A DNA stretch of 60,099 bases, the filler included, from Basidiobolus meristosporus CBS 931.73 (lineage: Eukaryota > Fungi > Basidiobolomycota), in assembly GCA_002104905.1 (NCBI GenBank). It is 3 parts of 3 records of this genome, joined end to end, with 100 filler letters (N's around TTAATTAATTAA, not from the genome) between each part and the next. Parts side by side here need not be neighbours in the genome. Positions count along the whole stretch, not along the records: positions 25,031 to 45,000 come from MCFE01001018.1; positions 45,101 to 60,099 come from MCFE01001160.1; 1 more part is not named here. One strand, given 5' to 3'. The notes beneath the pieces are model-generated. The model was not told where the DNA came from, searched no databases, and worked only from the letters and a program-made list of their open reading frames with translations. The translations under genes and the position numbers were made by a program. Of this stretch, positions 35,281 through 60,099 are shown piece after piece; within the stretch, counting starts at the first letter, position 1, and each line of letters begins with the position of its first letter.

Positions 35281-35478
35281 GGGTGGGGGGAGAGAGTCAC
35301 CAACAGGTGAAATCTCTATCTTAGTCAAACAAAAGAGGCCATCATTGCTGCTGTAGCTCTGATACACAAGTGTATAGCTGAGGGGAGTTGGTAGGCAGGT
35401 TATTAAGAAGAAATGATAACCCTTCAGTGCTCAAGACAAGAGCCAGTAGGATGATGGGTAGCAAGAGTGGTAAGAACC
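35281..35478 (-). mobile_element. Diverged 3'-end fragment of the telomeric LINE (family A)
   Basis: GGGTGGGGGGAGAGAGTCACCAACAGGTGAAATC followed by sequence encoding VLSTEGLSFLLNNLPTNSPQLYTCVSELQQ, versus VLSTEELSSLLINLPTNSPQLHTLVSKLQQ in ORF2. Confidence 0.8.
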
Positions 35479-36060
35479 GTTGTAAAAACCTTAGTGATAT
35501 CTCATGTGATTGGGAAAAGTAGATTTTGCAATTTCCACTTGATGATTTTTTGAATGTGAATTAGAATTACACTTTTACATGGTCTTGCCAAAAAAAACAT
35601 GTAGAATATGCTTAGAAAGGCCCCAAGAGCATGTGTGCAAAGCTCAGGGCTATTTAGACAGCTTTAAGAAACTTCACATCCTGGGTACCTGATATCTTGG
35701 TGAAAATATTCTAAATAGATCCTGACAATGAACTAGGTCAGAATTCTCTGAGAACTGTAGACTATGATCTAGGTGACTAAGCTAGGTGAGTGCTTTGGTA
35801 TAATAACAAAACCTAAAACACTCCCACATCTAAATATTTGTATTGATTAGTCATAAAAGTGATCTAAGATATTCAAATTTGTCTCTAGCCAAGCCCCTAA
35901 GGCTTGGTGAATATGTCCGCAATCAGTTCATATGTGAGACAGTAAGCTAAGTTGACCAAGTTGATCTCTATGTACTTCCCTTTGAGAATCAAATGTAATG
36001 ATTATATCAAGGGCCATCACAGGATTTAAATCCCATGACTAAGAGGAATTAATGCCATTA
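35479..36060 (-). mobile_element. Old copia 3' LTR, PPT and RNase H end
   Basis: Decayed reverse LTR at 35479-35820, then CTCCCAC (reverse PPT) and reverse RNase H sequence. Confidence 0.7.
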
Positions 36061-36064
36061 GTAC

Positions 36065-39000
36065 TGTTGTAAAAATTTGTAATTCCACCTAAATATTCAC
36101 CTAACTAAGTCACTTAGATCATTACCTTCAAATACTGGGGAATACTGACCAAATTCCTTGTAAGGATTTACTTGGAATATTTTCACCAAAATACCAGCCA
36201 CCCAGAACATGAGAAATTCTCAAAGCTGTCCCAACAGCCCCAAACTTTGCACACATGTTCTTGGGACCTTCCTTAGCTTATTCTACATGCTTGTTATACC
36301 AGGACCATGGAAAAGTATAAATACTACTTTTACATTGAATAAATCATTATGTGAAAACCACATAATTTATTTATCCTACCAATCACTTCCAATATGTCCA
36401 AGACTCTTACAACAGGTTATGAGCCCCAAGCTGTCACTCTCTGCAATGTCTACTACTGCTACTACTGGAATTTTCCCTCCGCTGAAATGTTGGATGGGTC
36501 TCATTACCAAGTGTGGAAGGTGAAGATGAAGATGCTGCTACAAGAAAGAGGCCTTTGGGATATTGTCATGGGAGAAGAATGCCTCCTAAAAACGTGGGAG
36601 AGGAAGCCTTTAAGTACCAGAAGAAAGAACAAAGTGCCTTTAGCTGCATTTGCCTCAATGTTAAGGACAAATTGCCAATTCAATGCTCAAGAGCAAAAAT
36701 GGCAAAGAATGCCTGGAAGGCATTATAAGACACCTACCAGTCATGTTCAGCTGCCAAGAAAATGTATTGTAGACAAAAATTCTTTACTCCAAAGATGATG
36801 CCAGGAGAAGAAATGAAAAATCTAATTAACAGAATTACCCTGCTGGTATATGAAAAGGAATCTGTGTGTGTACCAACTACTGATGAGGATGTGATATTTA
36901 CCATCCTGAATAGCCTGACAGACAAGTTTCAGGGCCTTCTATCAGCCCCAGAGTCCAGAACTGAAGATTGGACCTTAAATTACGTATATGGAAGGCTCCT
37001 GGATGAAGAATCACAAAAATGAAGCACCAATAAGAAGGAGGAAGAGAATGCTTCAATAGGCAATGATAACCAGCAAAGGAGGTACTCAAGACCCTACAAA
37101 TGCAACAGCAACCTGTCTTGCAACTACTGCAAAAGGAAAGGACACACATCAGACCAGTGCCTCAAAAAGAGAGATAATCAGCAAAAGAAGCCTGAATATG
37201 GAAATGCTGCAACAGCTGAAGATACACTGTTCAAATCTACACTAAATATGACTACAAACAAGGATTCTCAGACATGGTATATGGACTCTGGAGCTTCTCA
37301 ACACTTTACACACCAAAAAGAAATTTCTATCCAATATCAAGAAATTCCAGTTAAGAAGGTTTCATGGGTGACAATAGAACACTTGATGTAGTGGGAGAAG
37401 GAACTATCCAGGTAAACCTAAGAAGCAGTGAAGGAAGCCATAAACTGTTCTTTAAAGAAGTACTCTATGTACCAGAAATAGCCAAGAACCTACTATCTGT
37501 AAGCTACACCACAGCAGAAGGACTCAGTTTCAGCTTTAACAATTCTGGATGCAAGATGACTGATCATAATGGTGCCCATATTGCTTTGGGTATCAGAGAT
37601 CAGAATCTATATAAGCTGACTTATATTCCTTCATATTTGGAAGCCAATATAAGTAGCTTAAATGAAGAAACACCAATGCTTTGGCACAGGAGATTTGGGC
37701 ACATCAATTTTGATTATTTGTGCAAAATGATCAAAGATCAGTTAATTTCTGGAGTAAATATTGATCCCCAAGCAAATATGGAGCACTGTGAAGCCTGCAT
37801 ATATGGGAAACAAGCCAGACAACTGCTCAAGAGCTCTGGGCTAATCAAAACTAAGAAAAAATTAGATCTAATTCATTCAGATCTGTGTGGACATATACAA
37901 AATTTATCTTTAGGATGGATGAAGTATTTAATCACCTTTATTGATGATTATACAAGATACGCATGGGTCTACTTCATGGAGAGAAAGAAAGAAGCTCTGT
38001 CTAAGCTCAGGGAGTTCAAAGCCATGGTGGAGAGAGAAATCAGTGAAAAAATAAAAAAAAATATGCTCTGACAATGGCGGAGAATATACCTTAAAACTCT
38101 TCATCCACTTCTGCAAAATTTATGGGATAAAGCAAGAGACTACTGCACCATACTCCCCTCAGCAAAATGGAGTAGCAGTGCATGCAAACAGATCAATAAC
38201 TGATATGGCATGATCTATAATCTATGATCAAAAATTATCCTATGATTTTTGAGCAGAATCAGTTGCCACTGCTGTATACCTTAAGAATATGAGTTATAAC
38301 AGAATACTTTGCAATTCTACCCCATTTAAAGCATAGTATGGGTACAGACCAAGTGCAGAGCATCTAAGAATATTTGGGTGTACAGCATATGCCCAGTAAC
38401 TGCCTGGAAATCAGTCAAAATTTGAGCCAAAAAGTGTAAAATGCATATTTTTGGGTTACGGCAATGAGAGTAAAGCATACAGACTCTACAATACCAAAGC
38501 AAAGAAGCTAATCAAGTCCAGGGACTTGTTGTTTAATGCATATTCAAAATTTTCACAAAAAAAGACATCAGATGATGACAAAAATTTGATCTCAAGTCCA
38601 CAATTTGTCAGGATTGAATCAGAGCAAGACAATAAACTATTTTTCACTCCAGAGAACTCTGTAACCATAGTTTAGCCAGAATCAGTGCCCAGGAATATCC
38701 CAGAAGTGATTATTCTGGTATCAAATGCTAGGAGACCCAATTGGACAAGAAATAGCCCAATTTACTAAATCAATGAGGGTACAAACTTAGCCTATGCCTA
38801 TTCAGTCCATATTGATAAGCCCTGGACTGTAAAAGAGACCCTAAATAACCCTCAGACAAAGTTTTGGAGATCTACAATGACTGATGAATATCCGGCCCAA
38901 ATGCAAAATCAAGCTTGGGACTTAGTCAAATTACCAATCAACCAAAAATCAATTGGATGCAGATGGGTCTTCAAGACAAAATTCAAGGCTGATGGTTCAA

Positions 39001-39436: not shown

Positions 39437-40745
39437 TGTTGTAAAAATTTGTATTTCCATCTAAATATTCACATAACTTAGTCACTTAGATCATTACCTT
39501 CAAATCCTAGAGAATACTGACCAAATTCCTTGTTGAGATTTACTTGGAATATTTTCACCAAAATACCAGGTACCCAGAACATGAAAATTCTCAAAGTTGT
39601 CCAAACAGCCCCAAACTTTGCACACATGTTCTTGGGACCTTCTTTAACCTATTCTACATGTTTGTAATGCCAGGATCAGGTAAAAGTATAAATACTACTT
39701 TTGCATTCAATAAATCATTAAGTGAAAACCACATAATCTACTTGTTCTCCCAATCACTTCCAATATCTCCAAGACTCTTACAACAGGTTATGAGCCCCAA
39801 GCTGTCACTCTCTGCAATGTCTACTACTGCTATTACTGGAATATTTTCCTCTGCTGAAAAGTTGGATGGATCTAACTATCAAGTGTGGAAGGTGAAGATG
39901 AAGATGCTGCTACAAGAAAGAGGCCTTTGAGATATTGTCATGGGAGAAGAATGCCCTCCTAAAAACGTGGGAGAGGAAGCCTTAAAGTACCAGAAGAAAG
40001 AACAAAGTGCCTTTAACTGCATTTGCCTTAATGTCAAGGACAAATTGCTAATTCAATGCTCAAGAGCAAAAATGGCAAAGAATGCCTGGAAGGCATTAGA
40101 AGACACCTACCAGTCATGTTCAGCTGCCAAGAAAATGTATCTGAGACAAAAATTCTTTACTCCAAAGATGAAGCCAGGAGAAGAAATGAAAAATCTAATT
40201 AACAGAATCACCCTGCTGGTAGATGAGATGGAATCTGTGGGCGTACCAACTACTGATGAGGATGTGATAGTTACCATCCTGAATAGCCTGACAGACAAGT
40301 TTCAGGGCCTTGTATCAGCCCTAGAGTCCAGAACTGAAGATTTGATCTTAAATTACGTATATGGAAGGCTCCTAGATGAAGAATTAAGGAAATCAAGAGC
40401 CAATAAGAAGGAAGAAGAAAATGCTTTAATAAGCAATGATAACCAACAAAGGAGGTACCCAAGACCCTACAAAGACAACAGCAACCTATTTTGCAACTAC
40501 TGCAAAAGGAAAGGACACACATCAGACCGGTGTCTCAAAAAGAGAGATTATCAGCAAAAGAAGCCTGAATATGGAAATGCTGCAACAACTGAAGATAGAC
40601 TATTCATATCTGCACTAAATATGACCACAAACAAGGATTCTCAGATGTGGTATATTGACTCTGGAGCTTCTCAACACTTTACGCACCAAAAAGAACTTTT
40701 TACCCAATATCAAGAAATTCCAATTAAGAAGGTTTTCATGGGTGA
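39437..40745 (+). mobile_element. Copia 5' LTR (39437-39785), gag and protease, broken at ATGGGTGA
   Basis: Close to 50329-51640. The sequence switches abruptly to telomere-like repeats after GGGTGA. Confidence 0.92.
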
Positions 40746-40768
40746 GGGTTAGGGTGAGGGTTAGGGGG
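40746..40768 (+). repeat. Short telomere-like tract at a break junction
   Basis: GGGTTAGGGTGAGGGTTAGGGGG. Confidence 0.8.
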
Positions 40769-40802
40769 AGGGAAAGTCACCAAGTTGGTGAAATCTTTAT
40801 TT
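40769..40802 (-). mobile_element. Extreme 3' stub of a family-B telomeric element
   Basis: AGGGAAAGTCACC-loop-GGTGAAATCTTTATTT, as at 43743. Confidence 0.7.
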
Positions 40803-40805
40803 GAG

Positions 40806-41758
40806 TTAGGGGGATGATCATCACCAAAGGGTGAAATCTTTATTTAAATAATAAATAAAGAAGCCAAGTTTGAATATGAATATTTGAGATGCAGTAAGCC
40901 TACAAGATAAACTTGGACTTTGCTGTATCCCAAATATCCTCAATATCAAAGTCTAGAGGAGAGTGTAGCAAGACTGCTTGTTCACTGTAGTATTTCTTGA
41001 GGAAGTTTGTGACTTGAAGGGAAGGAGAGTTTTTCAACAAGCTGGTAAATCTATTGAGGAGTTCTTTTTCCAGAGAGAATGGCACAAAGAGTGGAATGTC
41101 CAAATGATGTCTGAATATATGCTCTGAGAGCTCCCAATCCAGCATATTTTTGACTTCTTCTCTAAAATCTTCAACAATGTCTTTGTCAAGAATAACTTCC
41201 AAGAGATCCCTGGCAATGTACTGAATGTTAATAATCTTAGGCATATGAATACCTAGGTCCTTGAGGTAGTTTCTTTGTTCTGATATTGGGAGATATCCTG
41301 CATTTCTGAAATAGCAAACAGCCCAGTTGGCAGTAGGAGGAGTATCAGGGCTGACAGGGAATCTTCTTCTGGCTTTAGAGTGCACTGGCTTAGGAGACTG
41401 TCTTGATGGAAGGGCAGCTGGTTTTGGATGAGCTTGAAGTGCTTGGGAGTAGGTTTGGGTACAAGTAGTAGAAGTTCCTGGTTGCTGAGAATTTTCAGAT
41501 TGACTGGATGAAGAGCTAATTGAGGGGTTGCAAGGTAAGGAAGAAGCTGAAAGAGAAGTGGAGAGGGCTGGGTGAAGTTCAGAAAAAGTTTTGAAAAGAA
41601 TTTGGATCTGAGATTTCAACATTGAGTTTTCAGCTTCAAGAAGAGAAACTCTTTGTTCAAGGTAAGAAGTCTGTAAAGAGTGAAAGTTGGGTAAAGACAT
41701 GGAAGTAGTAAATAAGAAGAAAGGAGTAGTTGGGGTGGGAGGGTGGGAAAATAGGTAA
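40806..41758 (-). mobile_element. Family C: ORF1-only, non-autonomous telomeric retroelement, apparently complete
   Basis: Pyrimidine-rich 5' leader, one ORF, a 3' double hairpin and a CCCCCTAA end shared with the LINE. No RT. Confidence 0.8.
40900..41700 (-). CDS. ORF1/gag-like protein of family C (266 aa from MSLPNF)
   Basis: N-terminal heptad/coiled-coil-like segment and Ser-rich linker. The C-terminal domain aligns with LINE ORF1 (LEVILD, L.W, FLK, WD.A). The track's 315-aa version is a chimera running into the neighbouring LINE. Confidence 0.8.
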   Translation of the reverse strand: MSLPNFHSLQTSYLEQRVSLLEAENSMLKSQIQILFKTFSELHPALSTSLSASSLPCNPSISSSSSQSENSQQPGTSTTCTQTYSQALQAHPKPAALPSRQSPKPVHSKARRRFPVSPDTPPTANWAVCYFRNAGYLPISEQRNYLKDLGIHMPKIINIQYIARDLLEVILDKDIVEDFREEVKNMLDWELSEHIFRHHLDIPLFVPFSLEKELLNRFTSLLKNSPSLQVTNFLKKYYSEQAVLLHSPLDFDIEDIWDTAKSKFIL

Positions 41759-43738
41759 GGGTTAGGGGGGAGACAGTCACCAACAGGTGAAATCTTTATT
41801 TCAATTGAAACAAAGAAGCCAGCGCTACTGTTGTAGCTTTGATACAAGAGTGTGTAGCTGAGGGGAATTTGTAGGTAAGTTAATAAGAAGTGATGATAGT
41901 TCTTCAGTGCTCAAGACACTGTTCAGTGGGAAGGGGGGTAGCAAGAGAGGTAAGAATGACTTGTGAACAACATTAATGAGGGGAATGTGATAAGGATTGA
42001 TATTTGTCATAAAGGGAGTGTGCTGCTGCAGATATTGCTGCCAAAGGTCTGTCAAGTACTTCAGGTAGGCCAGCTTGGGTTTTTCTGACTGCAGAATAAA
42101 TTCAGCAAACTTCTTGACTTCAGGATCTCCAAGTATAGTTCTCCAGCAGGAGCCAGGTGTTGTGTGGTGTGTTCTCTTCCAGGCCTTAATCAGTGGGTTG
42201 TTGCAGTTGTGAAGTCTGAGGTATAATCTGGTTCTTAGGTAGAGAAGTCTGATCTTATAGGGCATAAACCCAAAAGCACCAAGAATAGCATGTCTGTAGG
42301 GGCATTCAGGCAAATGAGGCACCAAGGAGGTAATGCACCATACTGCAAACTTGTCAAGCTTAGTGCAGTCTCTTGAAGTAAGAGAGAGAAGTGGTAAGCC
42401 AAATTCCAGGACAGGGAAGACAAACTGCTTGAGTAGAAGGAGGCAGCTGGGAGCTGAAGTTGTAGGAGGAGTAACAGCCAGTAGCTTGTGGAGTGCCTGT
42501 CTTGCTAGGATAATTCTCTTCTTCAGGTGTGCTCCAGAGTCTAGTCCAGTAGGAAGGAAAGGAAAGCCAAGATATGTAGCAGAAACCTGAGCAGGTAGAG
42601 TGGAGTTCTCCAAGTTGATGGGAGTGCCCAAAGGTACTGTCTTTGCAATGGAAAGCTGGAGATTATTCTTCTGCAGATACTGGTGGATGGTCTGGGAGTC
42701 TTGTTGCACATTGGAGGAGAATATTCTGATGTCATCAGCAAAGAGAGTAACCAGGCAGTCAGCTGAGAGTCTTGGGAAATCATTCAGGAAGATGGCAAAC
42801 AGTATAGGACCAAGCACAGAGCCTTGAACCACTCCATTAGGAACTGAGAACACTGGTGATTGCTCACTTGGGTGCAGAATTCTTGCTTGTGGATCCAGAA
42901 ACAGAGACCTGACAAGGAGGGTGAGAGAGGTACTGGAGAAGCATTGCAACTTGGACCAAAGCAGATTTCTGTCAACTGAATCAAAGGCCTTAGTAATATC
43001 AAACAGAACAGAGGGATACTTGCACTGGAGAGAGTGATCTTGGCTAAGTATGACTGCATATTCCAAGGAGAGGCCAGGAACAAAGCCAAACTGTGCAGGA
43101 TGAAACTTGAGGGAGTCAGAGTAGAGCTCCTGAGCAAGCAGAAGCTCAAACACCTTTCTGCAGGTGGGCAGCAGAGATATTGGTCTGTAGGAGCTAGGAT
43201 CCAGGTGCTTTCCTTTACCCTTGTACAGTGGCAGAACATTTGCAAAGGACCATTCCTCAGGAGTAGAAAGCTGGGCTGAGCATTGCTGAAACAGTGGAAG
43301 CAGAAGTGCAGACATGGCCTTGGAACTAGTCTTCAGAAGCTCATAGGAGATTGTGTCCACACCTGGAGCAGTAGAGTTGGGAAGCCTCTTGAGCACATTA
43401 TGGATTCTCTCTTGATCAAGTGCAAGTGGGATGGGCAGAGTCTTGAAGTCAGGATGAAAGCCAGGAGTTGAGTACTGCTTTGTAGAGAAGAAGATGTTAG
43501 CCAGCTGTTCTGTTGAAGGTAACTTCCTGGAAGAGGGCCTCATTGCCCTGTAGAGTCTTGATACTGTTCTTGTTATAGAGTTGGAAGATTGCAGAGGCAA
43601 GGAACTCATAATATGATCCCAGAGCTGAGTATGCAGAGTGTGGTGAATTGCCTTGGAGTGGTGTATTGCTGTCAGGAGGAGTTTCTCTGTTTTTGGGTTA
43701 GGGAAACTCAGGTAGCTTTGTTGCAGGGCTGAAACAAT
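41759..43738 (-). mobile_element. 5'-truncated telomeric LINE (family A), RT domain intact
   Basis: Near-identical to 56864-58840. YRPISLL, DITKAFDSV, GVVQGSVLGP and FADD motifs. 3' end fused to GGGTTAGGGGGG. Confidence 0.93.
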
Positions 43739-43933
43739 TTAGGGAGGGAAAGTCACCAAAGGAGGTGAAATCTTTATTTGATTTCAGACAAGTCTAACTA
43801 CAAATAAAGAAGCCAACTGGGAATAGAAGATTCCCAAAGTAAACACTAAGTTGAATATGAATAAATCTAAGCAAAAGTTAAGGCAGTATCCCAGAGTACA
43901 CTGGAGTTCAGGTTCATGGGGGAGTGAAGTAGA
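43739..43933 (-). mobile_element. Family B: 5'-truncated second ORF1-only lineage
   Basis: Minus strand encodes LLHSPMNLNSSVLWDTALTFA*, versus family C LLHSPLDFDIEDIWDTAKSKFIL*, followed by the shared 3' hairpins and TTAGGG. Confidence 0.75.
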
Positions 43934-43958
43934 TAGGGTTAGGGTTAGGGTTAGGGTT
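43934..43958 (+). repeat. Interstitial telomeric tract (about 4 TTAGGG units)
   Basis: TAGGGTTAGGGTTAGGGTTAGGGTT. Confidence 0.9.
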
Positions 43959-44587
43959 CTAGTGCTTTATTGGGAAATTTGCACAAGAAGTGCAATCTTG
44001 AAATATGACAAAGTCATATGAGTATAGCAACTATTATAAAATGAAAACTACTTTGCCAGTAAAAGGGGTGAAGGAAACTGTAAAAGCTATAAAGGAAAAG
44101 CTGGGGACACAAGAAATTTACAGTACCATTCATTGCCCTACACTGCAAGTAAGCTCAAGGAACATATAGGGAAGCTTTACCAGACTGAACTAAAGAATCT
44201 TGCTTCAGATCACAAAGGAAACAATGAGGACTGCAGAAGCTTTAAAGGAAACCAAGGTTCCCATAGTGATGGCTGACTGGGAAATCTACAGAAGCATTCA
44301 CTGATCCAAAAGAAGGAGGCAAGAGGCTAGAGTAATGTCATCAAAAGAAAATGAACCATAAGCTGAAGTTCAGGCACATGCATCAAGTCCAATCATGCCA
44401 AAGACAGCTGCAGAAGCTTGAAAGGAAACAGAAAGTCTCCATTGGGGTGACTCCAGGGGAAATCCACAGTCAGCCCTTTACATCACCAGAGGTGGGCAGT
44501 GTCTGAAAGAAAGGAAAGAAAGAGCAAGAGAAAAGGGAAGGAGAGAAGGAAAAAGGAAGGAGAGAAGAATGGGGTGGGTGGGTGGGA

Positions 44588-44820
44588 AATCTTATAGGTG
44601 AAGGATCTTGTTAAAGATCACATCACTAGGTTAGGGGAGATTGTTAGGGAAGGAGCATCAGGTCAGAAGACCCAATCTTATAGGTGAAGGATCTTGTTAA
44701 AGATCACATCACTAGGTTAGGGGAGATTGTTAGGGAAGGAGCATCAGGTCAGAAGACCCAATCTTATAGGTGAAGGATCTTGTTAAAGATCACATCACTA
44801 GGTTAGGGGAGATTGTTAGG
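44588..44820 (+). repeat. Subtelomeric 86-bp tandem repeat, about 2.7 copies
   Basis: Units start at 44588, 44674 and 44760. Each contains TAGGTTAGGGG and GTTAGGG. The third unit runs into the telomere. Confidence 0.92.
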
Positions 44821-45000
44821 GGTTAGGGTTAGGGTTAGTAGGTTAGGGTTAGGGTTAGGGTTAGGTTAGGGTTAGGGTTAGGGTTAGGGTTAGGTAGGTT
44901 AGGGTTAGGGTTAGGGTTAGGGTTAGGGTTAGGGTTAGGGTTAGGGTTAGGGTTAGGGTTAGGGTTAGGGTTAGGGTTAGGGTTAGGGTTAGGGTTAGGG
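44815..45000 (+). repeat. Telomere (TTAGGG)n, about 30 units, with a few variant units proximally
   Basis: Run of GGGTTA to the contig end. Confidence 0.97.
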
Positions 45001-45100
45001 NNNNNNNNNNNNNNNNNNNNNNNNNNNNNNNNNNNNNNNNNNNNTTAATTAATTAANNNNNNNNNNNNNNNNNNNNNNNNNNNNNNNNNNNNNNNNNNNN
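45001..45100. other. Artificial contig spacer
   Basis: 44 N + TTAATTAATTAA + 44 N. Confidence 0.97.
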
Positions 45101-50215: not shown

Positions 50216-50678
50216 GCTTTAGGGGGGAGACAGTCACCAACAGGCAAAATCTTTATTTCAGTTGAAACAAAGAAGCCAGCGCTACTGTTGTAGCTTTGAT
50301 ACAAGAGCGTGTAGCTGAGGGGAATTTGTGTTGTAAAAATTCGTATTTTCCACCTAAATATTCACCTAACTTAGTCACTTAGATCATCATCTTCAAATCC
50401 TAGAGAATACTGACCAAATTCCTTGTCGGGATTTACTTAGAATATTTTCACCAAAATACCAGGTACCCAGAACATGAAAATTCTCAAAGTTGTCCAAACA
50501 GCCCCAAACTTTGCACACATGTTCTTGGGACCTTCCTTAACCTATTCTACGTGTTTGTAATGCCAAGACCATGTAAAAGTATAAATACTACTTTTACATT
50601 CAATAAATCATTAAGTGAAAACCACATAATCTACTTGTTCTCCCAATCACTTCCAATATCTCCAAGACTCTTACAACA

Positions 50679-50690
50679 GGTTATGAGCCC
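50679..50690 (+). promoter_or_regulatory. Primer-binding site complementary to the anticodon arm of initiator tRNA-Met
   Basis: GGTTATGAGCCC is the reverse complement of GGGCUCAUAACC. It directly follows the 5' LTR, also at 36415, 39786 and 47901. Confidence 0.85.
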
Positions 50691-50709
50691 CGAGCTGTCA
50701 CTCTCTGCA

Positions 50710-53700
50710 ATGTCTACTACTGCTATTACTGGAATTTTTCCCTCTGCTGAAAAGTTGGATGGATCTAACTACCAAGTGTGGAAGGTGAAGATGAAGATGC
50801 TGCTGCAAGAAAGAGGCCTTTGGGATATTGTCATGGGAGAAGAATGCCCTCCTAAAAACGTGGGAGAGGAAGCCTTAAAGTACCAGAAGAAAGAACAAAG
50901 TGCCTTTAACTGCATTTGCCTTAATGTCAAGGACAAATTGCTAATTCAATGCTCAAGAGCAAAAACGGCAAAGAATGCCTGGAAAGCATTAGAAGACACC
51001 TACCAGTCATGTTCAGCTGCCAAGAAAATGTATCTGAGAAGAAAATTCTTTACTACAAAGATGCTGCCAGGAGAAGAAATGAAAAATCTAATTAACAGAA
51101 TTACCCTGCTGGTAGATGAGATGGAATCTGTGGGCGTACCAACTACTGATGAGGATGTGATAGTTACCATCCTGAATAGCCTGACAGACGAGTTTCAGGG
51201 CCTTGTATCAGCCCTAGAGTCCAGAACTGAAGATTTGACCTTAAATTACGTATATGGAAGGCTCCTGGATGAAGAATTAAGAAAATCAAGCGCCAATAAG
51301 AAGGAAGAAGAAAATGCTTTAATAAGCAATGATAACCAACAAAGGAGGTACCCAAGACCCTACAAAGGCAACAGCAACCTATTTTGCAACTACTGCAAAA
51401 GGAAAGGACACACATCAGACCGGTGTTTCAAAAAGAGAGATTATCAGCAAAAGAAGCCTGAATATGGAAATGCTGTAACAACTGAAGATAGACTATTCAT
51501 ATCTGCACTAAATATGACCACAAACAAGGATTCTCAGACGTGGTATATTGACTCTGGAGCTTCTCAACACTTTACACACCAAAAAGAACTTTTTACCCAA
51601 TATCAAGAAATTCCAATTAAGAAGGTTTTCATGGGTGACGATAGAACACTTGATGCAGTAGGGAGAAGGAACTATCCAAGTAAACCTTAGAAGCAGTGAA
51701 GGAAGCCATACACTGACCTTTAAAGAAGTACTCTATGTACCAGAAATAGCCAAGAACCTACTCTCTGTAAGCAAGGCCACAGCAGAAGGACTCAGTTTCA
51801 GTTTTGACAATTCTGGATGCAGGATCACTGATCAAAATGGTGCCCATATTGCTTCGGGCATCAGAGATCAGAACCTATACAAGTTGACTTATATTCCATC
51901 ATATCTGGAAGCCAATATAAGTAACTTAAATGAAGAAACACCAATGCTTTGGCACAGGAGATTTGGACACATCAATTTTGATTATTTGCGTAAAATGATC
52001 AAAGATCAGCTAATTTCTGGAGTGAAAATTGATCCCCCAGCTATTTTGGAGCACTGTGAAGCCTGCATATATGGGAAACAAGCCAGACAACCGTTCAAGA
52101 GCTCTGGGTTAATCAAAACTAAGAAAAAATTAGATCTAATTCACTCAGATCTGTGTGGACCTATGCAAAATTTATCCTTAGGCGGGATGAAGTATTTAAT
52201 CACTTTTATTGATGATTATACAAGATACACATGGGTCTACTTCATGGAGAGAAAGGAAGAAGCTCTGTCTAAGCTCAGGGAGTTTAAAGCCATGGTGGAG
52301 AGAGAAACTGGTGAAAAAATCAAGAAAATACGCTCTGACAATGGTGGAGAATATACCTCAAAACTCTTCATCCACTTCTGCAAAATTCATGGGATAAAGC
52401 AAGAGACTACTGTACCATACTCCCCACAGCAAAATGGAGTAGCAGAACGAGCTAACAGATCAATAATTGATATGGCAAGATCTATGATCCATGATCAAAA
52501 ATTATCCTATGATTTTTGGGCGGAATCAGTTGCCACTGCTGTATATCTTAAAAATAGGAGTTATAACAGAATACTTCGTGATTCTACTCCATTTGAAGCA
52601 TGGTATGGATACAGACCAAGTGCAGAACATCTAAGAATATTTGGGTGTACAGCATATGCCAAAAAACTGGCCGGAAATCAGTCAAAATTTGAGCCAAAAA
52701 GTGTAAAATGCATATTTTTGGGCTACTGCAATGAGAGTAAGGCATACAGACTCTACAATACCGAAGCAAAGAAGCTGATCAAGTCCAGGGATGTGTTGTT
52801 TGATGAAAATTCAAAATTTTCACAAAAAATGACATCAGATGATGACGAAAATTTGATCTCAAGTCCACCAATTGTCAGGATTGAATCAGAGCAAAACAAT
52901 GAAAATTTTTTCACTCCAGAGGACTCTACAACCGTGGTTCAGCCAGAATCAGTGCCCAGGAATATCCCAGAAGTGATCATTCCAGTATCAAATGCCCGGA
53001 GATCCAATCGGACAAGAAATAGCCCAAATTACTATATCAATGAGGGTACAAACTTAGCCTATGCCTATTCAGTCCATGTTGATGAACCCCAGACTGTAAA
53101 AGAGGCCCTAAATAGCCCTCAGACGAAGTTTTGGAGATCTGCAATGACTGAGGAATATCAGGCCCTGATGGAAAATCAAACTTGGGACTTAGTCAAATTA
53201 CCAATCAACCGAAAATCAATTGGATGCAGATGGGTCTTCAAGACAAAATACAAGGCTGATGGTACAATTGAAAGATACAAAGCAAGACTTGTAGCCAAAG
53301 GATACTCTCAAACAAAAGGACTTGACTATACTGAGACCTTTGCACCGGTAGCCAAGTTTAATTCCATCAGATTAATATTGGCTATTGCAGCCAAATATAA
53401 GTTTTTTATTCATCAAATGGATGTAAAAACTGCATTTTTGAATGGAGAACTTGATGAGGACGTGTATATGGACCAGCCTGATGGGTTTGTTGACCAAGAT
53501 AACCCCCATTTGGTCTGCAAGCTTAAAAAGTCACTATATGGTCTCAAACAATCACCGAGAGCCTGGAATTGCAAGATAGATTCTTATTTGGAATCTTTGA
53601 GTTTCAAAAGGAGTAATGCTGACTATAGTATATACTATAAGCCAGATAGAGCAAATCCAGTTCTATTAGCTCTATATGTGGATGATCTTATTATAGCCGC

Positions 53701-54655
53701 CAATAACCTAGAAACATTGGAAGAGACTAAATCCAGCCTATCTAAGGAGTTCAAGATGTCCGATCTAGGAGAACTTAGTTACTACTTAGGGATTAAGTTC
53801 TCCATAGACAGAAGTACCCAGACTATTACCCTAAGCCAATCCAAGTATATTCAAGATATACTAAAGAAGTACAAAATGGAAGACTGTAAACCGGCAGCTA
53901 CCCCAATGGAGACAAACCTTAACTTGGTCAAAACTCAACCAAATCAAGAGAGCTTGGTGCCATCTGAAAGCCCTGACTTTCCTTATCAATCTATGGTCGG
54001 CAGTCTGATGTATATCATGCTTGGAACACGTCCAGATATCTCATATTCAGTGGGAGTTGTCAGCCAACATAATCAGAATTATGGATCTGATCATATTGCA
54101 GCAGTTAAGCGGATTTTTAGATACCTAAAAGGAACTGCTGATATCTGCTTAAGATACACTTATAAGGATTCAGAACAGGATCTTGTGGGATACTCTGATG
54201 CTGATTGGGGACGAAATTTAGAAGACAGAAGATCCACCACAGGATACACCTTTCTTTACTGTAAAGGAGCCATTTCATGGAATTCAAGAAAGCAACCAAC
54301 CGTAGCACTTTCTACTACAGAGGCAGAGTATATGGCAGCCTGTGAAGCTACAAAAGAAGCAATGTGGTTAAGAAAGCTCTTTACAGATTTAGGCCTATGT
54401 CAAAAAACGCCTATTACTTTATTTCAAGATAATCAAGGATGTATACAATTAGGTAGAAATCCAACTTTTCATGCTAGAACCAAGCACATAGATATTAGAC
54501 ATCATTTCATACGTGAAGCTATAGAGAATAACTTAGTTAGCTTAGTTTACTGTCCTACAGATGAAATGATTGCAGACATATTTACCAAACCATTAGCTAG
54601 AGACAAGTTTGAATATCTTAGGTCAAAATTAGGACTAGTCAGTATGAACATTTAG
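50710..54655 (+). CDS. Copia gag-pol polyprotein with a single +1 G near 51661 splitting it into two ORFs
   Basis: CNYCKRKGHTSDRC knuckle, WYIDSGAS protease, SDLCGP/SDNGGEY integrase, HQMDVKTAFLNG and LYVDD RT, GYSDADW RNase H. GTAGGGAGAAGGA here versus GTGGGAGAAGGA in the 37388 copy. Confidence 0.9.
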
Positions 54656-56315
54656 CTGAGTGGGAGTGTTGTAAAAATTCGTATTTTCCACCTAAATATT
54701 CACCTAACTTAGTCACTTAGATCATCATCTTCAAATCCTAGAGAATACTGACCAAATTCCTTGTCGGGATTTACTTAGAATATTTTCACCAAAATACCAG
54801 GTACCCAGAACATGAAAATTCTCAAAGTTGTCCAAACAGCCCCAAACTTTGCACACATGTTCTTGGGACCTTCCTTAACCTATTCTACGTGTTTGTAATG
54901 CCAAGACCATGTAAAAGTATAAATACTACTTTTACATTCAATAAATCATTAAGTGAAAACCACATAATCTACTTGTTCTCCAATCACTTCCAATATCTCC
55001 AAGACTCTTACAACAATTTGTAGGTAAGTTAATAAGAAGTGATGATAGTTCTTCAGTGCTCAAGACACTGTTCAGTGGGAAGGGGGGTAGCAAGAGAGGT
55101 AAGAATGACTTGTGAACAACATTAATGAGGGGAATGTGATAAGGATTGATATTCATCATAAATGGAGTGTGCTGCTGCAGATATTGCTGCCAATGGTCTG
55201 TCAAGTACTTCAGGTAGGCCAGCTTGGGTTTTTCTGACTGCAGAATATAATGAGCAAACTTCTTGACTTCAGGATCTCCAAGTATAGCTCTCCAGCAGGA
55301 GCCAGGTGTAGTGTGGTGTGTTCTCTTCCAGGCCTTAATCAGTGGGTTGTTGCAGTTGTGAAGTCTGAGATATAATCTGGTTCTAAGGTAGAGAAGTCTG
55401 ATCTTATAGGGCATAAACCCAAAAGCACCAAGAATAGCATGTCTGTAGGGGCATTCAGGCAAATGAGGCACCAAGGAGGTAATGCACCATACTGCAAACT
55501 TGTCAAGCTTAGTGCAGTCTCTATAAGTAAGAGAGAGAAGTGGTAAGCCAAATTCCAGGACAGGGAAGACAAACTGCTTGAGTAGAAGGAGGCAGCTGGG
55601 AGCTGAAGTTTTAGGAGGAGTAACAGCCAGTAGCTTGTGGAGTGCCTGTCTTGCCAGGATAATTCTCTTCTTCAGGTGTGCCCCAGAGTCTAGTCCAGTA
55701 GGAAGAAAAGGAAAGCCAAGATATGTAGCAGAAACCTGAGCAGGTAGAGTGGAGTTCTCCAAGTTGATGGGAGTGCCCAAAGGTACTGTCTTTGCAATGG
55801 AAAGCTGGAGATTATTGTTCTGCAGATACTGGTGGATGGTCTGGGAGTCTTGTTGCACATTGGAGGAGGATATTCTGATGTCATCAGCAAAGAGAGTAAC
55901 CAGGCGGTCAGCTGAGAGTCTTGGGAAATCATTCAGGAAGATGGCAAACAGTATAGGACGGACCAAGCACAGAGCCTTGAACCACTCCATTAGGAACTGA
56001 GAACACAGCTGATTGCTCACTTGGGTGCAGAATTCTTGCTTGTGAATCCAGAAACAGAGACCTGACAAGGAGGGCAAGAGAGGTACTGGAGAAGCATTGC
56101 AACTTGGACCAAAGCAGATTTCTGTCAGCTGAATCAAAGGCCTTAGTAATATCAAACAGAACAGAGGGATACTTGCACTGGAGAGAGTGATCTTGGCTAA
56201 GTATGACTGCATATTCCAAGGAGAGGCCAGGAACAAAGCCAAACTGTGCAGGATGAAACTTGAGGGAGTCAGAGTAGAGCTACTGAGCAAGCAGAAGCTC
56301 AAACACCTTTCTGCA

Positions 56316-56660
56316 GGGTTAGGGGGGATGATAATCACCACAGGGTGAAATCTTTATTTATATCATAAATAAAGAAGTCAAATTTGAATATTAATATTTG
56401 AGATGCAGTAAGCCTACAAGATAAACTTTGACTTTGCTGTATCCCAAATATCCTCAATAATAAAGTCTAGAGGGGAATGTAGCAAAACTGCCTGTTCACT
56501 GTAGTGTTTCTTGAGGAAGTTTGTGACTTGAAGGGAAGGAGAGTTTTTCAGCAAGCTGGTAAACCATTTGAGGAGGTCTTTTTCCAGAGAAAATGGTACA
56601 AAGAGTGGAATGTCTAAATGATGTCTGAATATATGCTCTGAGAGCTCCCAATCCTGCATA
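56316..56660 (-). mobile_element. 5'-truncated family C (ORF1-only) element
   Basis: Matches 40806-41150 with substitutions. Same 3' hairpins and GGGTTAGGGGGG junction. Confidence 0.85.
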
Positions 56661-56863
56661 TTTAGGGGGGGGGAGACAGTCACCAACAGGTGAGATCTTT
56701 ATTACAGTTGAAACAAAGAAGCCAGCGCTACTGTTGTAGCTTTGATACAAGAGTGTGTAGCTGAGGGGAATTTGTAGGTAAGTTAATAAGAAGTGATGAT
56801 AGTTCTTCAGTGCTCAAGACACTGTTCAGTGGGAAGGGGGGTAGCAAGAGAGGTAAGAATGAC
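56661..56863 (-). mobile_element. About 200-bp 3' fragment of LINE family A
   Basis: TTAGGGGGGGGGAGACAGTCACC... through ...GTAAGAATGAC. Confidence 0.88.
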
Positions 56864-56926
56864 TTAGGGGGGAGACAGTCACCAACAGGTGAAATCTTTA
56901 TTTCAGTTGAAACAAAGAAGCCAGCG

Positions 56927-59695
56927 CTACTGCTGTAGCTTTGATACAAGAGTGTGTAGCTGAGGGGAATTTGTAGGTAAGTTAATAAGAAGTGATGATA
57001 GTTCTTCAGTGCTCAAGACACTGTTCAGTGGGAAGGGGGGTAGCAAGAGAGGTAAGAATGACTTGTGAACAACATTAATGAGGGGAATGTGATAAGGATT
57101 GATATTCATCATAAAGGGAGTGTGCTGCTGCAGATATTGCTGCCAAAGGTCTGTCAAGTACTTCTGGTAGGCCAGCTTGGGTTTTTCTGACTGCAGAATA
57201 TAGTGAGCAAACTTCTTGACTTCAGGATCTCCAAGTATTGTTCTCCAGCAGGAGTCAGGTGTTGTGTGGTGTGTTCTCTTCCAGGCCTTAATCAGTGGGT
57301 TGTTGCAGTTGTGAAGTCTGAGGTATAATCTGGTTCTAAGGTAGAGAAGTCTGATCTTATAGGGCATAAACCCAAAAGCACCAAGAATAGCATGTCTGTA
57401 GGGGCATTCAGGCAAATGAGGTACCAAGGAGGTAATGCACCATACTGCAAACTTGTCAAGCTTAGTGCAGTCTCTAGAAGTAAGAGAGAGAAGTGGTAAG
57501 CCAAATTCCAGGACAGGGAAGACAAACTGCTTGAGTAGAAGGAGGCAGCTGGGAGCTGAAGTTGTAGGAGGAGTAACAGCCAGTAGCTTGTGGAGTGCCT
57601 GTCTTGCCAGGATAATTCTCTTCTTCAGGTGTGCTCCAGAGTCTAGTCCAGTAGGAAGGAAAGGAAAGCCAAGATATGTAGCTGAAACCTGAGCAGGTAG
57701 AGTGGAGTTCTCCAAGTTGATGGGAGTGCCCAAAGGTACTGTCTTTGCAATGGAAAGCTGGAGATTATTCTTCTGCAGATACTGCTGGATGGTCTGGGAG
57801 TCTTGTTGCACATTGGAGGAGGATATTCTGATGTCATCAGCAAAGAGAGTAACCAGGCTGTCAGCTGAGAGTCTTGGGAAATCATTCAGGAAGATGGCAA
57901 ACAGTATAGGACCAAGCACAGAGCCTTGAACCACTCCATTAGGAACTGAGAACACAGCTGATTGCTCACTTGGGTGCAGAATTCTTGCTTGTGGATCCAG
58001 AAACAGAGACCTGACAAGGAGGGTGAGAGAGGTACTGGAGAAGCATTGCAACTTGGACCAAAGCAGATTTCTGTCAACTGAATCAAAGGCCTTAGTAATA
58101 TCAAACAGAACAGAGGGATACTTGCACTGGAGAGAGTGATCTTGGCTAAGTATGACTGCATATTCCAAGGAGAGGCCAGGAACAAAGCCAAACTGTGCAG
58201 GATGAAACTTGAGGGAGTCAGAGTAGAGCTCCTGAGCAAGCAGAAGCTCAAACACCTTTCTGCAGGTGGGCAGCAGAGATATTGGCCTGTAGGAGCTAGG
58301 ATCCAGGTGCTTTCCTTTACCCTTGTATAGTGGCAGAACATTTGCAAAGGACCATTCCTCAGGAGTAGAAAGCTGGGCTGAGCATTGCTGAAACAGTGGA
58401 AGCAGAAGTGCAGACATGGCCTTGGTACTAGTCTTCAGAAGCTCATAGGAGATTGTGTCCACACCTGGAGCAGTAGAGTTGGGAAGCCTCTTGAGCACAT
58501 TATGGATTCTCCTTTGATCAAGTGCAAGTGGGATGGGCAGAGTCTTGAAGTCAGGATGAAAGCCAGGAGTTGAGTACTGCTTTGTAGAGAAGAAGATGTT
58601 AGCCAGCTGTTCTGTTGAAGGTAACTTCCTGGAAGAGGGCCTCATTGCCCTGTAGAGTCTTGATACTGTTCTTGTTATAGAGTTGGAAGATTGCAGAGGC
58701 AAGGAACTCATAATATGATCCCAGAGCTGAGTATGCAGAGTGTGGTGAATTGCCTTGGAGTGGTGTATTGCTGTCAGGAGGAGTTTCTCTGTTTTTGGGT
58801 TAGGGAAACTCAGGTAGCTTTGTTGCAGGGCTGAAACAATGGATTCCCATTTTCTTGAGGTAACATCAGTAGTCTTGCATGGCAGTGAGAGGGAGGCAGA
58901 CACCAGAATCAGATGCTTCACAAAGAGCCAGGCATAGTTGAGATCATCTGGCAGAGAAAGTAGCAAACTGGCAAGCTTCAAGTAGTTCCCAAAGTCTTTC
59001 TTCTGATTCTTGGTAGCTTTGTGGGTGAGCACAGTAAGTTTTGGCAGCTTCTTCTTCACAACTGGTTGCATAGAAAGGGACCAGGCTGGATGGTCAGAGG
59101 CTCTCAAGGATCCAGGCTCAGCTCCAGAGAATTGCTTAACTTCATTCACAAAGTAGAGGGCAGCAGCAGAAGGGCAGATCCAGTCAACACATCTTTTCTC
59201 AGATTGAGCACCTAGTGCTAGCAGGTGGCTTTCTCTCAGGAAGTTCAGTAGGAATGTAGACCTTGGCTTCATTCTTGCAGTCAGAGTAGTCTTGTTCTCA
59301 GGATGGGGAATGTTGAGATCTCCAAGCAAGATAACAGGTGTTGATATAGATTGTTGGTATTGCTGAACCTTCTGGCATATAACTTGCACTTCTTGAAGGG
59401 CAAGACTTGGAGGCAGATAGCAGAGCACCAGACTGATAGTTGGCAACTGGAGAGCTGCACAGTAAGGGGAGTAAAGAGGAACACAGAGCTGAGGAGTATT
59501 GATGGTAGAAGAGATGAAGCAGATAGAGGAGATATTCTTTGTTCTAGGAGTAGAAAAGCAATATAGATTAGTCAAAAGTATAGAGGGTAGCTGGACATCA
59601 ATCAAACACAGGAGGGAAAATCTTGAAAGAAGTCTTTCTAGAGTTGGTCTTGATGGCTGTATGCTGTTGCAGTTAAGCAACAGAACTTCAGGTAG
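56927..59695 (-). CDS. LINE ORF2: APE-type endonuclease plus reverse transcriptase (922 codons after the ORF1 stop, no initiating AUG)
   Basis: APE motifs LLLNCNS, CYLPP, ILLGDLN, VDWI, SDH. RT motifs APGVDTI, YRPISLL, QFGF, DITKAFDSV, GVVQGSVLGP, FADD. Confidence 0.93.
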   Translation of the reverse strand, partial: LPEVLLLNCNSIQPSRPTLERLLSRFSLLCLIDVQLPSILLTNLYCFSTPRTKNISSICFISSTINTPQLCVPLYSPYCAALQLPTISLVLCYLPPSLALQEVQVICQKVQQYQQSISTPVILLGDLNIPHPENKTTLTARMKPRSTFLLNFLRESHLLALGAQSEKRCVDWICPSAAALYFVNEVKQFSGAEPGSLRASDHPAWSLSMQPVVKKKLPKLTVLTHKATKNQKKDFGNYLKLASLLLSLPDDLNYAWLFVKHLILVSASLSLPCKTTDVTSRKWESIVSALQQSYLSFPNPKTEKLLLTAIHHSKAIHHTLHTQLWDHIMSSLPLQSSNSITRTVSRLYRAMRPSSRKLPSTEQLANIFFSTKQYSTPGFHPDFKTLPIPLALDQRRIHNVLKRLPNSTAPGVDTISYELLKTSTKAMSALLLPLFQQCSAQLSTPEEWSFANVLPLYKGKGKHLDPSSYRPISLLPTCRKVFELLLAQELYSDSLKFHPAQFGFVPGLSLEYAVILSQDHSLQCKYPSVLFDITKAFDSVDRNLLWSKLQCFSSTSLTLLVRSLFLDPQARILHPSEQSAVFSVPNGVVQGSVLGPILFAIFLNDFPRLSADSLVTLFADDIRISSSNVQQDSQTIQQYLQKNNLQLSIAKTVPLGTPINLENSTLPAQVSATYLGFPFLPTGLDSGAHLKKRIILARQALHKLLAVTPPTTSAPSCLLLLKQFVFPVLEFGLPLLSLTSRDCTKLDKFAVWCITSLVPHLPECPYRHAILGAFGFMPYKIRLLYLRTRLYLRLHNCNNPLIKAWKRTHHTTPDSCWRTILGDPEVKKFAHYILQSEKPKLAYQKYLTDLWQQYLQQHTPFMMNINPYHIPLINVVHKSFLPLLLPPFPLNSVLSTEELSSLLINLPTNSPQLHTLVSKLQQ

Positions 59696-60097
59696 TCAGG
59701 CAGAGGTTGTAGCTTCTTCAGAGGCAGCATTGATAATGTGACCTGCAGAGTCCCAGAGCTCTTCAAATGGTGCATCACTTAAGTCAGCAAGGAGGGAAAT
59801 GGCATGATTCTTGAGGAAGTATGCCACATCATAGGAGGGGGCTTGTCTCTTGATGGCAGCAAAGAAAGACAGAATGGCAACATGGGCTGGAGGCTTGTTG
59901 AACAGTAGAGAGTCAGAGGATTCAGATTCTTCAGGCACTATCTTGAAGTCAGTTTTCAGCCAGTTAAGGTTCTTCTCCACAAAGGCAACAAATGGGTCAG
60001 CAATGTTTTGGTCTAGGATAACCTCCAGAATCTTCCCTTTTCTCCAGGCCAGGTTGACAATTCTTGAGAGCTGAATATTGCATGCCTTGAGTGCTTT
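59696..60097 (-). CDS. LINE ORF1 C-terminal part (partial)
   Basis: Open to the window edge: KALKACNIQLSRIVNLAWRKGKILEVILDQNIADPFVAFVEKNLNW...EELWDSAGHIINAASEEATTSA*. Homologous to the family C protein. Confidence 0.8.
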   Translation of the reverse strand, partial: KALKACNIQLSRIVNLAWRKGKILEVILDQNIADPFVAFVEKNLNWLKTDFKIVPEESESSDSLLFNKPPAHVAILSFFAAIKRQAPSYDVAYFLKNHAISLLADLSDAPFEELWDSAGHIINAASEEATTSA

Positions 60098-60099
60098 CC

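Follow-up and report, generated by a model that had tools for sequence, protein, structure and literature searches.

A candidate chromosome-end LINE family with ORF1-only partners in the TTAGGG fungus Basidiobolus meristosporus

Introduction

The telomeric elements HeT-A, TART and TAHRE of Drosophila are described as an APE- and reverse transcriptase (RT)-encoding element with ORF1-only partners, arranged in uniform polarity with the G-rich strand towards the chromosome end and retaining a conserved endonuclease for which the need is unclear (PMC13534243, PMC10088271); the Basidiobolus locus described here shares each of these features. ORF1-only forms are reported to be typical of telomeric Jockey elements and not of other Jockey elements (PMC13534243). 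The Drosophila elements differ from those studied here in belonging to the Jockey clade, in their zinc-knuckle ORF1, in having poly(A) and in living in a host without telomerase, whereas the Basidiobolus family has an ORF1 with a predicted coiled coil, RRM-like and helical domain, ends in the tail CCCCCUAA and lies at an end capped by canonical repeats.

Architecture of this kind is already known in fungi, from MoTeR, FoTeR, Cnl1 and the endonuclease-less (EN-minus) Penelope-like elements. As with the present family, accounts of MoTeR1/MoTeR2 (Pyricularia oryzae), FoTeR (Fusarium oxysporum) and Cnl1 (Cryptococcus) describe TTAGGG ends, head-to-tail arrays in which the 5′ ends point outward, 5′ truncations with seeds of 1 to 7 nt, a non-autonomous partner that shares the ends, and LTR-element insertions within arrays (PMC7367193, PMC12857005). 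Neighbouring elements in MoTeR1/2 arrays are said to be spaced by anything from half a repeat to over 20 (PMC7367193). However, these CRE-clade elements carry a C-terminal restriction-like endonuclease, and the middle of MoTeR2 has no obvious function; the Basidiobolus family has an N-terminal APE in ORF2, a separate ORF1 and partners that retain ORF1. EN-minus Penelope-like elements (Athena, Coprina and family 4 of Zymoseptoria) likewise are described as using reverse-complement telomere repeats to attach to G-rich overhangs, with the same polarity (PMC8557442, PMC4522978), and the Zymoseptoria family is reported to be confined to subtelomeres, with one to three TTAGGG at its 3′ ends and a single polarity (PMC4522978). 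They differ in their PLE-type RT, their hammerhead motifs and their lack of an endonuclease.

The TRAS and SART elements of Bombyx (R1 clade) are, as here, APE-type LINEs associated with telomere repeats, and their host, too, has canonical ones. TRAS cuts telomere tracts by a nick on the G strand, and we know of no ORF1-only partners of TRAS or SART. SART1 is reported to require three repeats and a poly(A) tail (PMC7265360), whereas the Basidiobolus elements are joined by linkers of 0 to 4 units, mostly below one repeat, and lack poly(A).

A first-pass annotation had called the locus HeT-A/TART-like and had stated that the known fungal telomeric LINEs are not of the APE type. In the literature that we searched, fungal telomeric retroelements fall only into restriction-endonuclease and endonuclease-less classes, with no counterexample to that statement, and we found no description of a fungal APE-type LINE with HeT-A-like ORF1-only partners; a catalogue entry (Repbase, Dfam) under a neutral name is possible. 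The annotation understated the fungal parallels, of which the MoTeR and Zymoseptoria precedents are closer. The likeness to HeT-A/TART is sound as an analogy and fails as membership, given the absence of poly(A), the canonical TTAGGG tract and an ORF1 in which no zinc knuckle was seen.

Results

Basidiobolus is a gut fungus. The window (the whole stretch of 60,099 nt that was analysed) consists of three separate Basidiobolus contigs, here pieces 1 to 3, divided by N spacers. Its relevant features are as follows.

35281..35476, minus strand: old, diverged element A 3′ end (~80% identity), the most proximal copy of piece 2, cut by LTR-element sequence
39437..40745, plus strand: Copia element broken in gag, the target of the piece 2 array; the missing part is not resumed before the telomere
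40746..40760, plus strand: telomere-like linker GGGTTA GGGTGA GGG on the broken Copia
40761..40808, minus strand: C-type stub that comprises just the 3′ hairpin and tail
40806..41761, minus strand: element B copy 1, a complete ORF1 and then the shared 3′ structure, without ORF2
41762..43738, minus strand: element A copy 1, 5′-truncated, RT frame open
43739..43936, minus strand: element C 3′ part, an ORF1-type tail (LLHSP...WDTA) and then the shared 3′ structure
43934..43958, plus strand: four interstitial telomere repeats, the longest linker observed
43959..44815, minus strand: element D, non-coding, 857 bp, membership uncertain
44588..44821, no strand assigned: 2.7 identical 86-bp units with two TTAGGG seeds each; the telomere begins at one seed
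44815..45000, plus strand: terminal (TTAGGG)n tract of 31 units, G strand to the contig end
48691..50215, minus strand: reversed 3′ part of a Copia, interrupted within RT, the target of the piece 3 array
50219..56317 (50219-50328 and 55016-56317), minus strand: element A copy 2, split by a later Copia
50329..55015, plus strand: full-length Copia inside A copy 2, flanked by a 5-bp target duplication and with LTRs that differ at 3 of 352 columns
56318..56663, minus strand: element B copy 2, 5′-truncated, 93% identical to B copy 1
56662..56865, minus strand: element A stub, ~200 bp
56864..60099, minus strand: element A copy 4, with 3′ structure, APE+RT frame and ORF1 tail, cut by the contig end

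The motif GGTGAAATCTTTAT (up to two mismatches) matched nine times in the window, always on the plus strand and each time at about 30 nt or less from one of the annotated 3′ ends, against a mean of 0.97 and a maximum of 4 in 100 shuffles; it was absent from piece 1 (1-24930, 24.9 kb and rich in transposable elements) and from the first 10 kb of piece 2. The uniform polarity and head-to-tail order noted in the first pass were borne out. That annotation spoke of ten non-LTR 3′ ends; all nine that it listed are real, and the count is nine because the split copy has a single 3′ end. In piece 2, the only piece in which a telomere is visible (44815-45000, 31 units), the array runs head to tail with the element 3′ ends towards the centromere, ORF1-only members included. 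It does reach the telomere, as had been proposed, but without direct contact: C is followed by four repeats and then by the 857-bp element D. Piece 3 stops inside an element A. The G strand of the elements runs towards the telomere, with a GC skew of +0.24 to +0.35 (Copia, −0.02). The polarised arrays, the short TTAGGG tracts between elements and the non-autonomous partner together match the MoTeR type.

From its sequence and structural models, we class element A as an APE-type non-LTR retrotransposon (LINE), with an N-terminal APE and a non-LTR RT in ORF2. Copy 4 has an open 922-codon APE+RT frame (59695-56930), preceded in the same frame by the last 133 codons of ORF1, with one TGA between; a readthrough hairpin past the ORF1 stop was not supported (z −0.85). 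Pfam matches to ORF2 were RVT_1 (E 2e-25) and, under the curated cut-off, Exo_endo_phos_2 (E 3e-4). The ORF2 model (pLDDT 87) best matched L1 ORF2p and AP endonucleases: the N-terminal domain has an APE1/ExoIII-like fold, the RT is LINE-type with L1 ORF2p as its best solved match, and the C-terminal region was modelled as helices. The elements also combine a fixed 3′ end with variable 5′ truncation, as LINEs do. Of the earlier description of A as an autonomous ORF1+APE-RT LINE, the APE and RT are present, while ORF1 runs off the end of piece 3 and no full-length A was seen. An LTR or solo-LTR origin is ruled out by the APE+RT and the fixed 3′ ends, and a Penelope-like identity by the LINE-type RT, the presence of APE and the absence of any Rfam ribozyme (35000-60099; three weak matches, the best an inverted LTR pair).

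In an RT tree of 224 rows that held no clade reference sequences, the family formed a long branch with no clear sister. Metagenome contigs yielded no close relatives (28 loci, all distant LINEs at 23-52% identity over short segments), and none of 106 pattern matches in genome contigs was a relative. The 3′ motif had no match in viral contigs and three in prokaryote contigs, alike only at the motif, which we take to be chance.

The endonuclease bears on whether the family inserts by ordinary target-primed reverse transcription. A telomere-specific family of that sort, whose APE nicks the telomere G strand in the manner of TRAS or of the mechanism put forward for MoTeR, and whose long internal tracts were later lost to leave short linkers, seems to us unlikely though a serious contender. 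Relatives as distant as 48% identity still carry the APE catalytic motifs (NxN, Y, GDxN, D and SDH), so the domain, with its APE1/ExoIII-like modelled fold, may nick; Drosophila telomeric ORF2s are likewise reported to retain endonuclease motifs (PMC13534243). Against nicking, motif II has Asp in place of the metal-binding Glu in all four sequences that cover the position, which we take from L1 EN and APE1, and no fixed TT/AG site was seen by eye after the break points.

Elements B and C had been described as ORF1-only lineages. For B this is borne out: copy 1 has a complete 266-aa ORF1 (41700-40903) directly followed by the shared 3′ structure, with no ORF2 and with a G-rich 5′ motif at 41732-41747. 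For C, the assignment depends on a 22-codon tail. B ORF1 is homologous to the A ORF1 tail (E 3e-10) and had homologs in B. ranarum only; the ORF1 look-alikes are Mucoromycota proteins. Its model (pLDDT 62) combines a coiled coil, a ferredoxin/RRM-like fold and helices, and the best structural match (Z 7.3) possibly reflects a common fold; Foldseek gave no match at E <0.001, and by eye no CCHC motif was present in the complete B ORF1 or the visible A ORF1 tail. Element D, rather than A, B or C, touches the telomere. It has the 5′ G-rich motif in common with B and contains the 86-bp tandem units, and it lacks the shared 3′ double hairpin.

The 3′ ends of A, B and C share two inverted repeats and then the tail CCCCCUAA. 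The repeats are predicted to fold as a double hairpin, with folding z of −3.4, −2.4 and −3.2 for A, B and C, respectively; stem 1 is paired at 10 of 10 positions in six of the nine ends, and its inner pair varies in a compensatory manner (C-G in A, A-U in B, G-C in C). On the RNA-sense strand the ends carry a reverse-complement telomere repeat, CCCTAA in eight of nine with the ninth decayed, in agreement with the G-rich plus-strand starts, (T)TAGGG(G)n or equivalent, reported previously. The longest A-run at the nine sense-strand ends is 2 to 4 nt, so the ends lack poly(A), as had been noted. No target-site duplications were visible either: for seven of nine elements, a 50-nt window, scored with no control, gave only matches of 3 to 6 nt, which we take as chance.

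Contigs from one sample's short reads supplied at least 20 further distinct head-to-tail joints of the same kind; this evidence covers the elements other than the A 5′ half, distal D and the telomere tract. Run X5 (share 0.07) gave only two short pieces at depth 2-3 and was excluded. Among the joints listed (15 of 73, with 12 of 163 linker rows), 12 of the 15 fall on the 3′ end of an A or C element, and every joint keeps to one strand. An assembly artefact is excluded, since the joints differ among themselves and recur in short-read contigs. Linkers span 0 to 4 telomere units in variable register. The nine distinct joints with known intervening letters comprise five exact telomere pieces (AG, TTAG, GGGTTAG, AGGGTTAG and TAGGGTTAG), three near matches and one GT-rich 27-nt insert. 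At 9 of 16 junctions, 2 nt or more were microhomologous to the telomere register, against 19% in simulation (p ~0.001); 11 of 20 joints were omitted as unscorable, four of the nine contig joints scored had unknown letters between, and one window junction was set to 0 by hand.

Short linkers also bear on target-primed insertion by a nicking APE. MoTeR arrays, which have an endonuclease, are described with the same short linkers, 1-7 nt seeds and LTR insertions; there, tracts of three or more repeats are said to be fragile, and the linkers short because long internal tracts break (PMC7367193). One linker here does have four repeats. Most, however, are under one repeat, whereas the reported requirement of SART1 is at least three (PMC7265360). 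The joints speak as well to a spread of arrays mainly by recombination or break-induced replication between ends, without new retrotransposition. Such exchange is documented in MoTeR arrays (PMC7367193), and the A copies in the window are 98-99% identical (except the old copy at 35281, ~80%). Array copying would repeat junctions, however, and at least 20 contig joints differ in truncation points and linkers, so we regard this explanation as very improbable.

Both arrays begin on broken elements. Targets, which are earlier elements or Copia in either orientation, are cut at arbitrary points, and neither broken Copia target (piece 2, piece 3) resumes beyond its array. LTR-element debris of ~5.3 kb lies between the piece 2 array and the copy at 35281, whose linker, GGGTGGGGGG, is decayed; within piece 2, this copy is both the most proximal and the most diverged. 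In piece 3, private changes number 17 in the proximal A copy 2, which also houses a Copia, and six in the distal A copy 4 (p 0.017, in a test of two copies possibly from different source elements). This age gradient along the arrays is consistent with sequential addition.

A quite different reading, which we consider fairly improbable, is a dispersed family that has a telomere-like tail for poly(A), repairs internal breaks and chains by RT template jumps, the piece 2 array being near a telomere merely because elements accumulate in subtelomeres. Template jumping likewise produces uniform polarity and microhomology. Many 3′ ends are joined to sequence outside the array: loose 3′-terminus ends, attached to diverse outside sequence in 11 and 27 contigs (X1) and 19 and 19 (X2), may be dispersed insertions. 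Two B. meristosporus gene models, on contigs of 117 kb and 177 kb, are stitched from A pieces, and summed contig depth roughly suggests hundreds of copies. Basidiobolus is, however, reported to have ~60 to many hundreds of chromosomes, so hundreds of copies could fit at ends (PMC3281927). Age differences within one array are unlike a single jumping event, the targets are not resumed past the arrays, the polarity of the piece 2 array relative to the telomere is as expected, and no copy lies in the 24.9 kb of piece 1.

Discussion

We hold with about even confidence that the rows of A with B and C grow by repeated addition at chromosome ends, with RT priming on broken or eroded G-strand ends. Because the targets are cut at arbitrary points and not resumed, we infer that the target is a free end. 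A short telomere seed on such an end would pair with the CCCCCUAA RNA tail and prime RT; the seed may be laid down by telomerase or copied by RT from the RNA tail. The A RT would recognise the predicted 3′ double hairpin, and since this is common to A, B and C, the latter two could be copied in trans. cDNA synthesis would presumably halt early, or the new end erode, before telomerase re-caps it and the cycle repeats, which would make distal copies the younger ones.

The window contains a perfect 17-unit TTAGGG run, which suggests a host telomerase. In the literature that we searched, no paper dealt with telomerase and TERT in Basidiobolus. As the host probably retains telomerase, the elements are most likely parasites of chromosome ends that may also help to heal them. 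A bolder and more doubtful proposal, which we offer tentatively, is that Basidiobolus has a second end-healing system beside telomerase, in which the one-repeat CCCUAA tail of an APE-type LINE RNA serves as a telomerase-like primer dock, no nick being needed, and the LINE sustains several ORF1-only lineages conserved across species. If true, this would be an independent origin of the HeT-A/TART arrangement, one that coexists with telomerase, and would offer a living model of how telomeres pass from telomerase to retrotransposons.

The coexistence of such arrays with telomerase cannot be studied in flies, which have lost telomerase. In Basidiobolus, which grows in culture and has many chromosome ends, the need for an endonuclease at ends and the rescue of telomerase loss by the elements can be tested, and the short shared 3′ hairpin would be a compact signal with which to assay the predicted recognition by RT. 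An APE-type family this deeply diverged, accompanied by ORF1-only partners, would add another independent origin of telomeric retroelements, and would show that ORF2 loss recurs at telomeres outside Drosophila.

Organization of the array

The window consists of three pieces, 1-24930, 25031-45000, and 45101-60099, linked by spacers of N. Piece 2 of the window terminates in 31 TTAGGG units, the G strand of which points to the contig end. The order of elements in pieces 2 and 3 (A, a LINE with APE and RT in ORF2; B and C, its partners; D, an 857-bp element adjoining the telomere) and the other features of the window are listed here; A1, A2, and A4 are copies of A.

Piece 2: the old end of A comes first, followed by LTR debris (5.3 kb), the broken Copia, and a linker; next are the C stub, B, A, and C, and beyond four repeats lie D and the telomere
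Piece 3: a broken Copia in reverse orientation, then the split A, B, the stub of A, and a last A that the contig end truncates
41762..43738 (-): A1
50219-50328 and 55016-56317 (-): A2, split by a full Copia element with a 5-bp duplication
56864..60099 (-): A4
50329-55015 (+): this Copia, full-length and young (3 differences between its LTRs over 352 columns), with gag and pol in offset frames around 51662-51690; nested and inverted copies of its LTR family are numerous in all three pieces
47397-47901: LTR fragments as an inverted pair, giving a long hairpin and the source of a spurious MIR2630 match
44588-44821: tandem 86-bp units carrying two TTAGGG seeds plus two hairpins (z -2.5), separating D from the telomere; they may represent a common subtelomeric repeat or else serve the family as 5′ promoters
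25920-34792 (+): immediately proximal to the array, four tandem copies of a ~195-aa gene (90-97% identical over the coding region; signal-peptide-like start; no Pfam family matched), a putative subtelomeric secreted-protein family
Piece 1: REI1 gene, 86% to Basidiobolus ranarum (its best named relative) and at most 55% to other fungi; a B. meristosporus protein belongs to its 90% cluster, and on these grounds the host is a Basidiobolus
6702-9520 and 11880-14702: two direct 2.8-kb copies, 82% identity
13107-13838: inside one of these copies, a weak Transposase_21 (CACTA-like) match
45045-45629 (-): ~180-aa Met-rich ORF, secreted-looking, that extends past the first base of piece 3; Pfam gave no family for it

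A common structure at nine 3′ ends

The first-pass annotation had located nine element 3′ ends on one strand, and we found GGTGAAATCTTTAT at every one of them: at up to 2 mismatches the window holds 9 matches, 9/9 on the plus strand, against a mean of 0.97 and a maximum of 4 in shuffles. Read in the sense direction, every end has AATAAAGATTTCACC-loop-GGTGA followed by a pyrimidine run, which terminates in CCCCCTAA at 8 of the 9. No poly(A) was found at the nine ends, in agreement with the same annotation. Stem 1 forms 10 of 10 pairs in six of the nine ends, 9 in one, and 8 in the old copy; in the stub its 5′ arm is absent. The elements differ at the inner pair of the stem (A, C-G; B, A-U; C, G-C). 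Folding z-scores of the structure were -3.4, -2.4, and -3.2. In stringent LINEs, the RT recognizes a signal at the RNA 3′ end, and by analogy we infer that the common 3′ structure is a putative recognition signal for the RT of A.

Element A

ORF2 of A is an open frame of 922 codons with an RVT_1 match (E 2e-25) and a weak APE match; a domain search found no RNase H domain in it. L1 ORF2p was the best structural match to its model (pLDDT 87), and AP endonucleases also matched. The APE motifs NxN, Y93, GDxN, D171, and SDH are retained; at motif II, all four sequences covering the position have Asp where L1 EN and APE1 have Glu. ORF1 and ORF2 share one frame, with a single TGA, then CTA, between them (59690-59700, minus strand), and the first Met of ORF2 sits past the GDxN motif, with none ahead of the APE motifs. 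We take UGA-CUA to be a readthrough context; judging from the reading frame, the ORF2 product may arise via readthrough or a non-AUG start.

Of 82 matches to ORF2, 5 were close (48-80%), the remainder being ca. 21-39% identical over parts. A profile search raised the number of close matches by three: an APE piece and two gene models of B. meristosporus. In an RT tree (FastTree, 224 rows, each with at least 200 aligned residues), all six members of the family group together as a clade (support 1.0), and the branch leading to them measures 1.16 substitutions per site; their sister is not clear in this tree without clade reference sequences. The B. meristosporus gene models P0233 (ORX99946.1) and P0235 (ORX93213.1) are stitched from several RT pieces of one direction; by eye, P0233 begins with sequence like that of P0005, a divergent lineage, which hints that the arrays include a second autonomous lineage. 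Two relatives of A, P0203 and P0209 (59-62% identity), are deposited under Bacteroides fragilis on 1.6- and 0.7-kb contigs, probably eukaryotic contamination in a bacterial assembly.

Partner elements

B carries a complete 266-aa ORF, with the common 3′ end directly after it. This ORF is homologous to the ORF1 tail of A (29%, E 3e-10) and has two protein matches in all, both B. ranarum proteins. Its model (pLDDT 62; best Z 7.3) comprises a coiled coil that a disordered linker connects to an RRM-like domain, followed by helices, and its Atlas look-alikes (0.91-0.93) are Mucoromycota proteins. Only 22 codons of C are visible, but since this tail has LLHSP and WDTA as in B, C too appears to terminate after ORF1. 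The earlier proposal of two ORF1-only lineages is supported, for B by homology and for C by its tail. D has no coding on the minus strand and has in common with B a G-rich motif at the 5′ end, with a local score of 55 where none of 2000 random windows exceeded 28; its membership is uncertain because the 3′ double hairpin, looked for in D, is absent.

Junctions and abundance

Additional joints came from contigs of the four runs that contain most A words (one sample, possibly the source of the window), mapped on 40600-44500. These contigs contain at least 20 distinct joints; among the 15 listed of 73, 12 fall at the 3′ terminus of A or C, and the strand is kept across all 15. Nine distinct joints have known intervening letters: five exact telomere pieces, three near ones, and one 27-nt GT-rich insert. 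Telomere-register microhomology of at least 2 nt occurs at 4 of 7 window junctions (one put at 0 by hand, another scored on a continuation deduced from a loose end, i.e., a contig leaving the mapped stretch) and at 5 of 9 contig joints (4 of these 9 with unknown intervening letters, and the other 11 of the 20 joints being unscorable), against a null of 19% (p ~0.001 over 16 junctions). The junctions show that telomere-like sequence was added, by telomerase or RT, to arbitrary ends.

Summed depth, which in contigs is not copy number, is 1.18 million at the 3′ terminus of A and drops to 0.43 million at 2 kb inward (single pieces, ~110-350); it is ~0.5 million for C, 0.014-0.14 million for B, and <0.008 million for D. 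Dividing by 31, the largest possible overlap, puts the number of A ends at roughly 150-330 as a minimum, which is compatible with confinement to chromosome ends, given the ~60 to many hundreds of Basidiobolus chromosomes stated in PMC3281927. Loose ends at 3′ termini (11 + 27 contigs in run X1, 19 + 19 in run X2; agreement 0.41-0.47) lead into varied sequence beyond the mapped region; they could represent dispersed copies, the 5′ halves of A elements, or places where arrays are anchored.

Comparison with known systems

We compared the family with MoTeR (PMC7367193), FoTeR (PMC12857005), Zymoseptoria (PMC4522978), Drosophila (PMC13534243), PLEs (PMC8557442), SART1 (PMC7265360), and a telomeric-element survey (PMC10088271); in the survey text covered, MoTeR1 is the only fungal example named. 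MoTeR is closest in array layout and HeT-A/TART in gene content, but the A/B/C family belongs to no known group, because it lacks a defining feature of each as described. No published description of it was found in the literature searched, a scope outside which TE databases and most subscription papers lay. The lack of fungal precedent assumed at first pass stands for the enzyme class and the ORF1-only partners but not for the array architecture, which is already known from fungi.

Copy ages and mechanism

Over 1,303 columns, private columns number 20 in the proximal copy A2 (17 events), 10 in A1, and 6 in the distal A4 (A2 17 versus A4 6, p 0.017); A2 additionally contains the later Copia insertion. 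This age order fits outward growth step by step. It also argues against a single template-jumping event for the whole row, though short element pairs could be template jumps. A dispersed family that forms chains is improbable. Copying of arrays by recombination seems very unlikely. We see an even chance that the RT would prime at free ends bearing a short seed, and regard nicking of telomere tracts by the APE as doubtful, if slightly less so than dispersed chaining. The A/B/C array itself is a real feature, and the specialization for telomeres that free-end priming and APE nicking have in common is likely.
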